From contig JBHHUM010000026.1 of the NCBI GenBank assembly GCA_046861645.1, positions 1 to 27,489 of the forward strand: a DNA stretch of 27,489 nt, given 5' to 3'. Positions 22,692 through 27,489 of this stretch are shown here, in pieces. The notes beneath the pieces are model-generated. The model was not told the DNA's origin, searched no databases, and saw only the letters and a list, made by a program, of their open reading frames with translations. How positions within the stretch are numbered: the stretch's first letter is position 1; the number at the start of each line of letters is the position of its first letter. A program made the position numbers and the translations under genes. The stretch comes from Fidelibacterota bacterium (GTDB taxonomy: Bacteria > Fidelibacterota > Marinisomatia > Marinisomatales > UBA2128).

Positions 22692-23894
22692 TTACAAAGG
22701 TTTTTTAGTAAGATAAATTCTACGAAGGCGATTAGTTGTTGCCAGCAGAACTTTGGCTCGATATTTCCCCAGGATGAGTGACTCACCTGCCCGGGGGATT
22801 CGACCTAATGAAGAGAGTACAAAGCCACCTATAGTTTCGTAGTTTCCCGTAGGTAGATCGTATCCATAACGTTTTAAATCTTCGATTTCCACCAGGGAAT
22901 CCACGACTAATCCTCCCCCCGGGATGCGTGATATTTTCTTTCCCGCTTCATCAAATATATCTTCGAATTCTCCAAACAACTCCTCCACCAGATCTTCTAC
23001 AGTAACCATTCCTATTGTCTCGCCATTCATTCCGGTGATTAATGCAATACTGGATGTATGCTGTTTCAACTTTTCCAGGGCTGAACTGGCCGTTCGTGTT
23101 TCAGAAATGAAAATGGGTTGTTTCATAATTGCCAGTAGAGATTGGGGATGGGTAAAGAGATCGTGAATGAAAATAACACCGACGATGTTGTTCAATGATC
23201 CCTCGTAAACAGGGAGCTTGGAAAAACCGGTTTCGGCAAGGGCAAGGGCAGCATCTTCCCGAGTGGCTGTGATGTTTATGGAGACGATATCTGACAGAGG
23301 GGTCATGGCTTCTTTGACTGGTCGGCTGCCAAACTCGAAGATGTTCGTTATCATTTCCTTTTCATCTGACTCCAATTCTTCACCTACCTCTTTTTCTTCA
23401 AAGAGTACTTTTAAATCTTCACGAGTGAATAGGGGAGCGTCTGAGTGATTATCCTTGTTAATCAGGTGGGAGTAAAGGCTGACCAGCTTTACAAAAGGAG
23501 CTAGAATGAATTCAATGGCTCTCAGGAGAGGAGTCACTCGCAGGGCAAGCAGGTTGGCATGATCCCGAAAGAGAACTTTGGGTAAGATCTCACCAAATAT
23601 AAGGATCACTAAAGCTATGATGAGCATAGTGGGTGTCTTTCCTATTCCAGAAGCTAAAAGCGTAACTGTGGCGAAAGAGGTCGTCAGAACGTTGGCAATA
23701 TTTGTTCCGATCAATAGTGTGGTTAGGTAGCGTTCCGGTTCTGATAGTAGTCCAAGGGTGCGCCTGGCAGAGCGGTGACCTTGTTTCTGCCACACTTCAA
23801 TCTGGAGGGGATTGGCCTGGATGAAGGCAATCTCCGTCCCGCTGAAAAAGGCAGAGAGGATGAGACCTATGAGGGCAAATATCGGTTCAATCAT
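22692..23894 (-). CDS. CNNM/CorB-type (hemolysin-annotated) protein: DUF21, CBS pair and CorC domain
   Basis: SAFFSGTEIA, LIGTNIAN, IFGEILPK, FSKLPVY, GMVTVEDLVEELFGE, YETIGG. Confidence 0.93.
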   Translation of the reverse strand: MIEPIFALIGLILSAFFSGTEIAFIQANPLQIEVWQKQGHRSARRTLGLLSEPERYLTTLLIGTNIANVLTTSFATVTLLASGIGKTPTMLIIALVILIFGEILPKVLFRDHANLLALRVTPLLRAIEFILAPFVKLVSLYSHLINKDNHSDAPLFTREDLKVLFEEKEVGEELESDEKEMITNIFEFGSRPVKEAMTPLSDIVSINITATREDAALALAETGFSKLPVYEGSLNNIVGVIFIHDLFTHPQSLLAIMKQPIFISETRTASSALEKLKQHTSSIALITGMNGETIGMVTVEDLVEELFGEFEDIFDEAGKKISRIPGGGLVVDSLVEIEDLKRYGYDLPTGNYETIGGFVLSSLGRIPRAGESLILGKYRAKVLLATTNRLRRIYLTKKPL

Positions 23895-23971
23895 CTATTT
23901 TTTTGTGTTGTTCACAGTTCAAAATATCTAATGAGAATGAAATACTCAATAGTTTTAGTTTGTGGCAATCT

Positions 23972-24041
23972 GTTTCCCTCTTGAGCTTCCCTTCCGATAC
24001 TTTACCCCCAACTTTGAAGGGTAAGTGGGGAAGAGGGAAAC
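23972..24041. repeat. Inverted repeat / hairpin at the boundary between core genome and cassette array
   Basis: GTTTCCCTCTT (23972-23982) and AAGAGGGAAAC (24031-24041) form a perfect 11-bp inverted repeat enclosing TTACCC/GGGTAA. Confidence 0.6.
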
Positions 24042-24070
24042 TTTACTCTTGATTAAATAGTATTTGTCAG

Positions 24071-24386
24071 TTATTCAACTGGATTCATATTCCCATAAAC
24101 AAGCCTAATAAACAGGCCGGAAGCTCCTAATACTAACGTAGAGACGAGTGCCAATACTAGAATAGGACCAAAGCCTAAGGAAAACATTGTGCTAAAGAAT
24201 AACGCAAATAGTATTCCGAAAAAAACCCATGAGAATACCGACCCGGAGTCCTTCAGCCAAAGGTGACTCCCCTTCATATCCCTTTGGATGGATATAGGCT
24301 ATGATCAGAGCCATTACCAGGACAGCTATCAGGGGCAAGATGGGTGAACCTCCCTGCGCCGCTCCTGCAGGTTCATAAATGGCGAA
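24071..24386 (-). pseudogene. 5'-truncated, frameshifted small membrane protein gene (cassette remnant)
   Basis: One frame reads IYEPAG..LIAVLVMALIIAYIHPKGYEGESPLAEGLRVGILMGF. It shifts at a T7 run (24219-24225) into GILFALFFSTMF..LFIRLVYGNMNPVE*. In-frame TGA at 24387-24389. Confidence 0.65.
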
Positions 24387-24388
24387 TC

Positions 24389-24521
24389 ACAAAACTTCGA
24401 ATTCACTTGCCTTTTTTTGATAATGCTTGATATAAAATGTCTGTCGGCAGACAGGTGTTCCGGTTATTTCACAGCCGGTTCCGATGTATTGTATCGGGGT
24501 CTGGTTGAGCGTGGGTGAGAA
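24389..24521 (-). other. Degenerate or hybrid attC site (attC3)
   Basis: Minus strand: TTCTCAC (R''-like) and GCTCAACC (L'') just after the hicB stop; AGTGAAT (L'), a 5-nt spacer and GTTTTGT (R'). The L'' and L' boxes do not pair, which suggests two fused half-sites. Confidence 0.55.
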
Positions 24522-24528
24522 GGCACCT

Positions 24529-24734
24529 TTACACCTCGACAAGTTCACTGGTGATCTCCGATTCTGGAATAGGACTTCCTTCTTAGAGAAGTGATTCTAA
24601 ATGGAATTCAATCGCTTCTCAAATTAATTTTCTTACTTCAGATTGAGTTTCTGTGACAGCCACACAACCCGGTAGGTCCGGAACAGATGCTCCATAATTA
24701 TTGTCTGTTTTTTAATTACGACTACATATTGCAT
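24529..24734 (-). pseudogene. hicB: HicB-family antitoxin pseudogene
   Basis: MQYVVVIKK/DNNYGASVPDLPGCVAVTETQSEVRKLI*EAIEFHLESLL*EGSPIPESEITSELVEV*. Frameshift in an A6 run (24708-24713); stops at 24619-24621 and 24583-24585. Confidence 0.9.
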
Positions 24735-24903
24735 TTTTTTCAATCTTATTTCGCGTCCCCAGAGATAAATCCAAACTTAGTTTCCCTGTAACTGTTACTG
24801 TTCCTGGTTTGTTTGGATGTTTATATTATCTATGACCACCCTTAATTCTGTGTAGATACCAGCCCACATTTTCCAACATTTTGATCATTTTTCTAAATTT
24901 CAT
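24712..24903 (-). pseudogene. hicA: HicA-family mRNA interferase toxin pseudogene
   Basis: MKFRKMIKMLENVGWYLHRIKGGHR*YKHPNKPGTVTVTGKLSLDLSLGTRNKI. The HicA GW..R.KGSH.QYKHP.KPG.VTV pattern carries a TAA at 24826-24828. Confidence 0.9.
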
Positions 24904-24967
24904 TGCAATACTGAAAATAAAACAAATACAATATTTTCACAGTAAACTAATACTAATTAATAGTGCC

Positions 24968-25025
24968 TTCTGACATTCAGCATCAGCAGCGGCTCATCGC
25001 TGTGAGTTGCCTGCTGTTGTTTGGA
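24968..25025 (-). other. attC site (attC2), degenerate
   Basis: Minus strand: TCCAAAC-AACAGCAGGCAACTCACAGCGATGAGCCGCTGCTGATGCTGAAT-GTCAGAA, an imperfect hairpin with an unpaired base in the left arm. R'' lies 10 nt after the stop at 25036. About 7 nt appear deleted from the L'' region. Confidence 0.75.
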
Positions 25026-25035
25026 GTTTTTCAGC

Positions 25036-25887
25036 TCAAAAGTGATAGAACAGTGATAGAACAGGCCTCACATGAAACTCTTTGTCCTCAGTCAGGGGTA
25101 GACTAACACCGACTCCGACCTGGAAGCTTGGATTGTCAAACGGCTGAATTTTGAACCCCGGCGTTATGTTGACGAACGTTTCTCCATCCTCCTCACCACC
25201 AAAAACATGCTCGCCGTCGAATTCGAGGAGCGTCATGAGCTGAGGTATCAGGTAATAGAGGATGGATACATTCCAGCCAAGCTCAAAGTCAGCCTCATCT
25301 TCGTCATTGTCATTAAACGGGAACCCGAAAGAGGTGAAGCCGACAATCTCCCAATGATCGCGCCGATAACCCAAATCAACAAAAGGCTCAACCTCCAACA
25401 CCCGGTCAAAACCGATTCCCCTCTCCTCATTGCCGGTGGGTAAGCCGAACTCGATCCCCCCACCCAGTAGCACGCCATGTTCCCCAAGAGTGAAGTTTGC
25501 GTACTTAATACCGACCTCCACATTGTCTAGACGATCCGTAGCATTCCCTTCATTGGTGTTGAGAAACGTATATGGGACATCTGCCTCAAGACTCAGCCAA
25601 GGTGCGAAGGCGTATTCGGACTCCAAGCGAAGTGTGTGGCGTTTAACGCCTTCTTCTCCTGGTTCGTTGGAGAAGAAATAGTCGAAACGCACCTTAGTGT
25701 CTGGAGATGGAGATTCTGCGACGAGAGGGTGAGAGAAATGCAAGTGGCCCTGGTCGTGAATGTGGGGCGTTGGCTCGTGAGCCAGGGCTATCCCTCCGAA
25801 GCTCGCCTGAAGTGTAATGCTTACGATAGTAAGGACCGCTAGTCTCAAGGGGGTTCTGGTTATGGTTCGAAAATAATAGGTTATCAA
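25036..25887 (-). CDS. Cassette-borne predicted outer-membrane beta-barrel with a His-rich N-terminus (putative metal-related transporter)
   Basis: AGGAGG ribosome-binding site and TTG start; signal peptide ending ALA; HEPTPHIHDQGHLHFSHP; alternating beta-strands; terminal Phe (LSLFYHF); visibly more GC-rich than its flanks. Confidence 0.75.
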   Translation of the reverse strand: MITYYFRTITRTPLRLAVLTIVSITLQASFGGIALAHEPTPHIHDQGHLHFSHPLVAESPSPDTKVRFDYFFSNEPGEEGVKRHTLRLESEYAFAPWLSLEADVPYTFLNTNEGNATDRLDNVEVGIKYANFTLGEHGVLLGGGIEFGLPTGNEERGIGFDRVLEVEPFVDLGYRRDHWEIVGFTSFGFPFNDNDEDEADFELGWNVSILYYLIPQLMTLLEFDGEHVFGGEEDGETFVNITPGFKIQPFDNPSFQVGVGVSLPLTEDKEFHVRPVLSLFYHF

Positions 25888-26017
25888 TAACTTTCCTCCT
25901 GAAAATATCTATGTTCCCCTTTCCATTAATGGTGTAACATTTTGTGAGACCCTGACGAGTAAGTCAGGCTAAACACCAGACACAGCTCCAAAGGATCCTT
26001 TGGGAAAGGGGAACGAT

Positions 26018-27083
26018 ATGAATCATAACAACAGAAAGCTAATTGAAAATAAACAATACATACAAGGAAAAGTAATTGCCTGCCCGACATTGGTCAGGCG
26101 GGTCGGGATTGATCCTGCTAAGGATAAGTACCAGGTGAGGATCATTGATTCTTATGGAGTTCCCGTAGGTATGTCCTTTTCTTTTCCCAACTCATACAAC
26201 AGGTATCACAACATTATGTGGAGAAAAGTCAGGAGGTACATAGGGGAACCCAAGCGGAAGGTTATTTTTGCTGTGGAAACTGCTTGTGATTTGTGGCAGA
26301 CGCTGGTTCATTGCCTTTATACTAACCGCCCGTTACTTGCTAAAGCGATACATCCTGCCTCACCATTATCTTACTCTTGATATGGAAAAAGAAACATAAG
26401 CGATTACGTCTATATCCAAGCGCCAGCACGGGAAAGAAACACTTATGTTCCTTCGACAGATGGCAGAGAAAACGATTGGTGTCGATTGTAGTGATAATAC
26501 CGAAGAAAAGAGTTTACGCTTTATCCTTAACTGCTGGTTGAATCAATTGGATTTGATTGAAGAGCAAGCCAGGTAAATTGAATGTGAACTCATTCAACTT
26601 GCCAAACAGTATTCGTCTTATTACAGTATCAGAAGCTTAATGGGAGTATCAGATAAGATGGCAGCTTTATTTATTGCAGAGACCAGGGCTTTAAAGAATG
26701 TCACGCACTATAAACAAATTCAAAAGATGGCAGGAACTAATCTCCGGTTAAACACGTCAGGACGCTACCGGGGTCGTAACCGTTTGAGTCATATTGGTAA
26801 TTCACGCTTGCGTTGGCTTTTATACATGATGACAAAAGAGACGGTGAAATACATTCCGGAGATCAGGGTTCAATACCTGAAGCGGAAGTTGAAGAAGCTC
26901 AGCTATACAAATAACGTTATGGCCTGCACTTCTAAGCTGTTACAGATAATCATGTCATTGGTGAGGGAAGAACGAAAATATGATCCAGGTTTACATCCAG
27001 AAATCATAGTCCAGTGTAAACAGCTGGATGCAGAGTACAAGAGAAAGAAGCGTAACAAGCCTTCTGCTATTCAGTATGCTTGA
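26018..27083 (+). pseudogene. IS110-family (DEDD) transposase pseudogene
   Basis: N-terminal VGIDPAK and FAVETA motifs. A frameshift/deletion near 26320 removes the DxxD region. A second frame reads TARYLLKRY..(TAA 26397-26399, TAA 26574-26576)..GVSDKMAALFIAE..KMAGTNL..TSG..SHIGNSRLRWLLY. Confidence 0.9.
26079..26102. repeat. 24-bp palindromic insertion inside the transposase
   Basis: CCTGCCCGAC-ATTG-GTCAGGCGGG. Removing it converts KVIACPTLVRRVGID to KVIVGID. Confidence 0.8.
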
Positions 27084-27288
27084 ATATGTGCTGATTGACA
27101 ATTAGAATTCTACCTGGGGAATAAGCCAGATAAGGCAACTCTCTTTCGCCGGAACGCCAGGAATTATTCCGGTAATGGAGAAAGCCTCAACGGGAGAGGT
27201 GTGCCCGTATGGTACCGGGAAATCAAGATAATACGCCAAAACAAAGCTTTTTTCTAAGAAACCAAGCTAAGATCGGCTCAGTTTTTCC
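27084..27288 (+). ncRNA. Candidate bridge/seek RNA region (IS110 non-coding right end)
   Basis: Non-coding end with hairpins GCCGGAA/TTCCGGT (27148-27173) and ACGGG/CCCGT (27190-27208). The RNA call rests on IS110-family knowledge only. Confidence 0.4.
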
Positions 27289-27311
27289 TTGACTTTGTAG
27301 CAAGTAGGGTG
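27289..27311 (+). promoter_or_regulatory. -35 half and spacer of the IS circle-junction promoter; the -10 is TAACAT at 25935-25940
   Basis: TTGACT (27289-27294) plus 17 nt ending in the GGTG core abuts TAACAT when the element circularises. Confidence 0.75.
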
Positions 27312-27446
27312 AGCTCACCGGCGTAAAAGATTCTGCCGACTACAGTTCTGTTTAGATTGTGCTTCATTTTTTCTCCAAACTTAAGTTAGAGCCCGCCAGT
27401 CCTTTACGTCCGGTGCAGCGGATTGCTGGGTGTTTCAAGAACATTA

Positions 27447-27488
27447 CTAATACTGAATTGTCTCTTTTATCGTTTCATAGCTAAAAGG
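27447..27488 (-). CDS. Probable 3' end of the next cassette gene, running off the window
   Basis: ..PFSYETIKETIQY* followed by a second stop; ends 15 nt before R'' of attC1. Confidence 0.35.
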   Translation of the reverse strand, partial: PFSYETIKETIQY

Positions 27489-27489
27489 A

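Follow-up and report, generated by a model that had tools for sequence, protein, structure and literature searches.

What kind of element has split an integron attC site near the right edge of a Fidelibacterota contig, and how did it find that site? The window analysed here is the whole of contig JBHHUM010000026.1 of assembly GCA_046861645.1 (27,489 nt; contig C107 of genome G000 in our collection). A preliminary description had proposed an IS110-family element without inverted repeats inside an attC site, possibly belonging to a separate lineage whose guide RNA is programmed for such sites. Comparison with related copies makes it highly probable that the window contains the inactivated remains of an RNA-guided insertion sequence (IS) of the IS110 group, from a distinct lineage specialised on integron attC sites, in support of that proposal, though it had rested on the wrong ends. 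Aligned sequences establish here where the elements of this lineage end, which target they use and how they are oriented in it, how their RNA folds, and that the guides covary.

Ends and decay of the window copy

Table 1. Features in the right part of the window, with positions counted from its first nucleotide.
Feature	Position	Strand	Remarks
Decayed HicAB-type toxin-antitoxin cassette	24498..24972	-	Both core sites mutated
Decayed attC-like hairpin after beta-barrel ORF	~24965-25030		Fold z -0.92, weak
Presumed next cassette: outer-membrane beta-barrel-like ORF	25036..25887	-	PF13505 below cut-off
Expected last spacer base and R'	25897..25904	-	Decayed or rearranged; 3 of 5 element-adjacent bases differ from the family's TAACG
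Whole IS110-group element, decayed	25905..27307	+	1403 bp; end motifs common to relatives
Left end / leader	25905..26017	+	113 nt
Transposase pseudogene	26018..27083	+	Matches residues 1-109 and 180-443 of intact P0005
Right non-coding end	27084..27307	+	224 nt; -35 hexamer at 27289-27294
Interrupted attC	27308..27431	-	R'' 27425-27431, spacer, L'' 27412-27419, variable loop, L' 27313-27319, spacer 27308-27312
3' end of the cassette owning the interrupted attC	27432..27489	-	Cut by contig end

Homologous copies place the ends of the element at 25905 and 27307 rather than at 25935 and 27311, as first described. The left-end motif starting at 25905, with YAACG before it, is common to a stump on contig C163 of the same genome, the copy in genome G005, which belongs to the same order, and stumps in G006 and G022. 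The motif GGTG, previously taken to flank the element on both sides, is indeed present at 25931 and 27308, and it is this pair that speaks for an element spanning 25935-27311 with a 4-nt GGTG core. As a duplication, however, the pair is a chance match, the left GGTG (25931-25934) lying inside the leader and the right one being target spacer. The stretch that such an element would leave out (25905-25934) opens with the family's left-end motif and holds the -10 box; other close copies lack GGTG, which is missing from the same 45 nt at the left end in five other loci (at least 60% identity, called left end). Furthermore, the first bases past the right end show free variation in a set of 52 junctions, and most elements have a single base common to both sides, so a GGTG core is barely conceivable. 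With the corrected end, the left non-coding part is longer than the ~83 nt given earlier (left ends in the lineage have a median of 96 nt), and what had been read as a long right end of ~225 nt is the product of a deletion, as the right ends of intact elements measure 360-619 nt (median 409, n = 59). The reported absence of sub-terminal inverted repeats was confirmed, perfect inverted matches between the two terminal 30-mers of the window element reaching 3 nt at most.

The assignment to the IS110 family also held: on the plus strand, PF02371 exceeds its cut-off at 26640-27083, and PF01548 matches weakly at 26000-26380. Compared to the intact transposase P0005, identity is 47% over residues 1-109 and 67% over residues 180-443. 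A 293-nt deletion near 26321 takes out the third and fourth residues of the DEDD set (the last two D), and the gene has stops and frame changes downstream of it. In the right end, ~140-150 nt with both guide loops have been deleted, reducing the bridge RNA to its outer stem arms (27144-27156 and ~27165-27176), and our RNA model (R1, see below) finds no match in the window element. The copy is 71% identical to the loci L034 and L035 in a global alignment, and it is shorter than its intact relatives (~1810-2100 bp). Its leader includes the -10 hexamer of a predicted circle-junction promoter (25910-25915) and a 10-bp inverted repeat (25913-25922 and 26005-26014), which spans the ribosome-binding region and is found in the nearest clade only. 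As its remaining parts read, the window copy is a dead relic that has lost part of the transposase and both guide loops.

The interrupted attC site has decayed as well. The preliminary description expected that deleting the element would restore a canonical-looking attC, but neither join gives one, as decay has affected both R boxes: R'' has AGC in place of the AAC core, and R' reads ATT with the 25935-27311 join and is non-canonical with the corrected join too. The R boxes are unpaired in the folds of both joins, and only the L''/L' stem is good (12/12 pairs, two extrahelical bases). The right half of the site folds no better than shuffled sequences (z -0.70) and scores 12 under our rule-based scheme, in which one of its 20 shuffles scored 13. 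A homologous intact attC occurs on contig C87 of genome G034, with 75% identity to the interrupted site. Point changes and a deletion are both possible causes of the decayed left flank.

The right 3.5 kb of the window looks like a decayed cassette array. The cut cassette at the contig end matches at 88% the end of a cassette in genome G052 (contig C97), which continues into an intact R''. The HicAB-type cassette is flanked by core sites in three relatives (G005, G006, and G015), and the HicB of G005 exceeds the cut-off of PF15919; the toxin gene of the window cassette is presumably HicA. The attC-like hairpin downstream of the beta-barrel ORF terminates where GTTAG lies in the aligned HicAB cassette. 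A strict attC scan of window positions 23800-27489 found no site at the 9-of-12 threshold, as expected from the mutated cores; across the whole genome no site reached 12 of 12, and one near the C163 stump reached 11 of 12. The integron integrase of this genome, also on C163, has one internal TAG.

Several further observations concern this genome and its relatives. Besides the decayed HicAB-type cassette, the stretch 24090-24972 of the window includes DNA that matches a small membrane-protein gene of genome G047 at 72%. The C163 stump (25915-26333) is a left end of the same family at an intact R' core, ~4 kb from the integrase (29915-30859). Left-end-only stumps with the transposase cut within a few dozen codons are also found at attC R' cores on contigs C3, C35, and C56 of G006 and in the loci L032 and L033. 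Three further IS110-family transposases of the genome, on contigs C80, C95, and C106 (L007, L010, and L009, respectively), are unrelated to the lineage; in L009 the transposase is followed by a long non-coding region, and a DNA search with another IS110 of this genome against plasmids gave no match.

The wider lineage and its insertion sites

Using the G005 protein as query, with its one stop read through as X, we retrieved 407 proteins, mostly of ~440 aa, the named ones belonging to Marinimicrobia, KSB1, Caldithrix, and Anaerolineaceae. Intact P0005 exceeds the cut-offs of PF01548 (DEDD RuvC), PF02371 (Tnp_20), and NF033542, and the D-E-D-D residues and the catalytic serine of the SG motif are invariant in all 64 aligned proteins. 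A TcdB_N match of P0005 (E 0.032) was dismissed as noise, being below the cut-off and without a passing stretch. Matches occur in 11 of 401 genomes of the phylum, including the genome of the window; a single-protein search of genome contigs yielded three loci only, and in metagenomes 289 stretches were confirmed by a scan that provided 79 loci. At a 40% identity threshold, 94 of the 96 loci were retained. In 83 loci, the left end was called by an internal motif alone, after exclusion of the false call L085, and the right end of L093 was set by hand. The ends of L036 and L096 were mis-called; both count as misses in the flank counts and were excluded from the right-end guide, repeat, and length tests. 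An integrase-like match was found in only 1 of the 96 loci, which are short.

The left junctions point to one target. YAACG is present at 55 of 69 distinct left junctions, compared to a background of 98 in 58126 positions (0.17%). The other 14 comprise two with AACG, seven with one mismatch from TAACG, and five others, namely the window, the end-to-end junction L045, L065, L070, and L121. The elements sit one base from the GTT of R' and not, as had been described for the window, within the 5-nt spacer. They are oriented antisense to the cassettes, and for the window copy the orientation against the attC half at 27308-27431 agrees with what was reported earlier. Scored as attC halves by our own rule (not IntegronFinder), 22 of 46 right flanks reach at least 12 and 19 at least 13, against 10 and 2 of 920 shuffles; the 24 flanks below the strict score include the two mis-called ends. 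Thus, other copies also lie at attC sites, as the preliminary description had anticipated. Insertions in the lineage cause no target duplication, and at least one base, usually a single G, is common to both junction sides in 48 of 49 elements; the core of IS621, by comparison, is the two-base CT.

Two loci depart from this pattern, L065 and L070 being inserted between L'' and R'', in the other attC arm from the main clade, which is also the arm that ISPa21 and ISKpn4 occupy. Several loci also bear on mobility. L046 and L047 are identical 1819-bp elements at two different attC sites, and four near-identical 1954-bp copies have two different left and three different right flanks, some of which are perhaps chimeric. 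In sequencing run X17, a contig of depth 69 starts 5 nt left of the element, and several different upstream contigs branch at that point.

Some elements contain additional structures. Sixteen of the 83 left ends are long (~180-240 nt; L050, L051, L054, L060, L069, L077, L079, L087, L093, L097, and L106-L111) and have a second conserved, strongly folding insert, for which a role as regulatory RNA or as another guide-like RNA is conceivable; Rfam gave no match for it in the two long left ends tested. Palindromic short repeats are inserted in the guide RNA or leader of L031 (the right end of the G005 copy), L064, and L089, and a similar repeat lies at ~24440-24455 in the window.

Guide RNA and predicted circle junction

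The attC-programmed guide RNA that had been postulated for the window can be read in intact relatives, where it lies in the right end. Of 65 right ends with the anchor motif, 51 non-redundant ones were aligned, and the alignment folds into a pair of stems, each around a large internal loop. Pairing is preserved in 91.1% of cells, compared to 73.8% in shuffled and 35-54% in slid controls, and compensatory changes are found at 24 of 28 pairs. Within the second loop, base 3 of the left end is complementary to one column in 42 of 44 elements (shuffle mean 16.0), and another column is identical to base -3 of the right end in 40 of 41 (shuffle mean 24.2), although the p-values of all such shuffles overstate significance because the loci are related. 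Since these guides covary with the element's own ends, the second loop is, by this covariation, the donor-binding loop.

The first loop tracks the target. Its 3' strand carries the R core, and the flanks of L043, L094, L065, and L070 mirror its variant cores; guide and flank agree in 40 of 41 cases at positions -3 and -2, and guide positions -8 to -6 show no covariation with the target. The 5' strand of the loop pairs with the L' box, with runs of at least 5 nt in 22 of 38 elements (shuffle mean 5.6, maximum 14), and this pairing starts at +4 to +8 in 37 of 38. For the spacer between the two boxes, pairing with the guide is not in excess (2.79 vs. 2.65, p 0.13). In L065 and L070, which are sister tips in the tree, the R-core guide is on the opposite strand of the target loop, i.e. 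the guides are swapped; judging from guides and flanks together, the pair is a case of natural reprogramming within attC.

Model R1, built from 35 sequences, matched all nine family loci outside the build set and none of 21 other IS110/IS1111 loci. Among 150 genomes it matched eight; G000 was not one of them. Rfam searches of five intact loci and the window region found no bridge-RNA family. A left-end hairpin had also been considered as guide RNA and was dropped, the inverted repeat of the leader being confined to the nearest clade and the covarying guides being located in the right end.

When the two ends are joined, they are predicted to form a sigma70-type promoter. The -35 and -10 hexamers are then separated by 17 nt in 40 and by 18 nt in 8 of 50 elements (48/50 in total), and this regular spacing independently supports both corrected ends. 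One natural right-end/left-end junction was found (L045), which may represent a tandem dimer or an assembly artefact; the contig sets of four sequencing runs searched for L115 contained no end-to-end joint.

Competing explanations and relation to known systems

RNA-guided elements in attC sites are known from the IS1111-attC group (ISKpn4, ISPa21, ISPst6, and ISPa25; Siddiquee et al. 2024, PMC11187229), and the lineage might be an ordinary member of this group with decayed inverted repeats. Both are RNA-guided DEDD elements that use attC, lie antisense to the cassettes, and cause no target duplication, and both have a long non-coding region downstream of the gene with a guide RNA in which the guide complementary to the top strand precedes the bottom-strand guide, the order described for IS1111 seekRNAs (PMC11187229). 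A downstream RNA is not exclusive to IS1111, however, since the same source notes IS110-type elements with a downstream region as exceptions to the upstream position usual for IS110-group guide RNAs. It also gives 330-350 aa for IS1111 transposases and 395-455 aa for the long subgroup of the IS110 group. As a control we used an element of pME-1a, taken as ISPa21 on the basis of PMC7232449 and its likeness to the ISKpn4 sequences in the supplement of Siddiquee et al. Its transposase has 347 aa, against ~440 aa in the lineage, with 18% identity over 103 aa (E 1.1). Whereas IS1111-attC elements have sub-terminal repeats of 11-13 bp (13 bp in ISPa21), the terminal repeats of intact lineage members measure 3-7 nt in 49 of 50, the exception having 9 nt. 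ISPa21 is inserted at the L''/R'' end, as is stated in PMC3001079 and tabulated in PMC13604230, in contrast to the main clade of the lineage, which adjoins R'. Furthermore, the RNAs are unrelated, and model R1 misses ISPa21. In a careful 21-row tree, the lineage forms a clade (100/100) that is sister to long Bacillota-type IS110s (98/95), and an AU test rejects its grouping with ISPa21 (p 2.85e-9) and with all five IS1111 rows (p 0.007); our trees include 20 reference proteins, 14 of them in the careful tree, and contain long branches. The transposase was thus placed outside the IS1111-attC group, in agreement with the separate lineage first proposed, and the lineage shares with the IS110 group the lack of long sub-terminal repeats and the position on a non-IS1111 branch. 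Membership in the IS1111-attC group is therefore very improbable.

Two other explanations accept a separate lineage and question what the RNA reads. The short TAAC-type motif could be the sole target, in which case the association with attC would be a by-product of the motif's frequency in integron arrays. It is true that only ~5 nt of the left guide match constantly and that about half of the right flanks stay below the strict score, but in each host the L' box and the second guide covary, and the reprogrammed members went to the other attC arm and not to unrelated DNA. Moreover, a motif present at 0.17% of flanking positions should often bring the element to places outside attC, and we consider this explanation improbable. 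Somewhat less improbable, if still unlikely, is the idea that the RNA supplies the donor guide and a scaffold while the target is chosen mainly by the protein, which would recognise attC as a folded hairpin or cruciform, and the target loop provides no more than fine-tuning. The offset between the crossover and L' varies (+4 to +8 in 37 of 38), which is hard to reconcile with rigid duplex DNA, and for ISPpu10 a target stem-loop contributes to specificity (bioRxiv 10.64898/2026.03.19.712850). Yet changes in the guide track those in the target, the arm switch included, and fold recognition would be more an addition to the RNA-guided attC specialist than a replacement for it.

Among the bridge recombinases, IS621 and ISCro4 (Durrant et al. 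2024, PMC11208160; PDB 8WT6 and 9T56) share with the lineage the D-E-D-D and SG set, a two-loop RNA with target and donor loops, and very short terminal repeats. The lineage is distant from the 326-aa IS621 (E 1.7e-5) and differs from it by an RNA in the right end, the IS1111-type guide order, the one-base shared core, and the skipped spacer. Its nearest relatives in the tree are the long Bacillota IS110s (IS650/ISChy2-like, with ISBth13 further out) at 27-30% identity, but the RNA model finds nothing in their loci. A YFPEF motif is common to the lineage, IS650, and ISChy2, the latter two being outside the rows of the tree. In the ISfinder protein set, as contained in the available source data of Siddiquee et al., five lineage motifs are absent and a sixth occurs only in IS650 and ISChy2. 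The available text of bioRxiv 10.64898/2026.08.14.744561 mentions neither attC nor integrons, and the same applies to the main text of bioRxiv 10.64898/2026.10.21.760802, whose 86 supplementary bridge-RNA models may include this RNA.

RNA-guided targeting of attC as such is already known; what appears to be new from the comparison of loci is an independent lineage, the use of the other arm, a split-target guide that can be read from sequence, and a naturally occurring switch between arms. In the literature that we searched, which covered the founding IS1111-attC papers (Tetu & Holmes 2008 and Post & Hall 2009) through citations only, an attC lineage of the IS110 group is not described. More tentatively, and with the balance somewhat against it, the lineage could be an undescribed clade of long IS110-group bridge recombinases whose attC targeting is independent of IS1111, with a target split into two short boxes around an unread 4-7-nt spacer, a single shared base, possibly a folded attC strand as substrate, and guides that swap roles to serve either arm.

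For the RNA-guided attC specialist that we favour, the following course of events can be envisaged. By analogy with IS110 and IS1111 biology (PMC11187229, PMC11208160), the element would excise as a circle, whose sigma70-type junction promoter would drive both the gene and the RNA. The donor loop would pair with both sides of the circle junction, and the target loop with two boxes on opposite strands, the R core and L'. The variable 4-7-nt spacer between the boxes would be left unread, so that one guide could serve many attC sites. Insertion would shift R' ~1.8 kb away from the rest of attC, and because R' would be separated from the stem by this distance, cassette excision is expected to be blocked and the cassette should remain frozen until the element leaves. 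Within a cassette array in decay, the window copy would later have been stripped of its guides and of a part of its gene; the integrase of this genome has a stop codon.

If this is true, integron attC has become the target of RNA-guided ISs from two separate IS110-superfamily branches by convergence, with different arms under attack, and such insertions may be a route to the freezing and decay of chromosomal cassette arrays in sediment bacteria. Under the more tentative reading given above, the split target would represent a recognition mode not shown for IS621, ISEc21, or ISKpn4, and the element would be a natural universal inserter into integron arrays. The lineage also provides natural experiments on the rules of bridge RNAs, including donor covariation, spacer skipping, the one-base core, and the arm swap, and some copies (L046/L047 and L115) are intact and recently active.

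The attC sites are also used by group IIC-attC introns, which are likewise mobile parasites of attC on the antisense strand but differ in being retroelements with a ribozyme that insert near the attC 5' end (PMC3001079). At one locus, the stretch directly past the right end of the element (L050:3259-3333) matches group II intron domains V-VI with 39.5 bits, just below the cut-off, which suggests the presence of a group II intron and an IS in the same attC.
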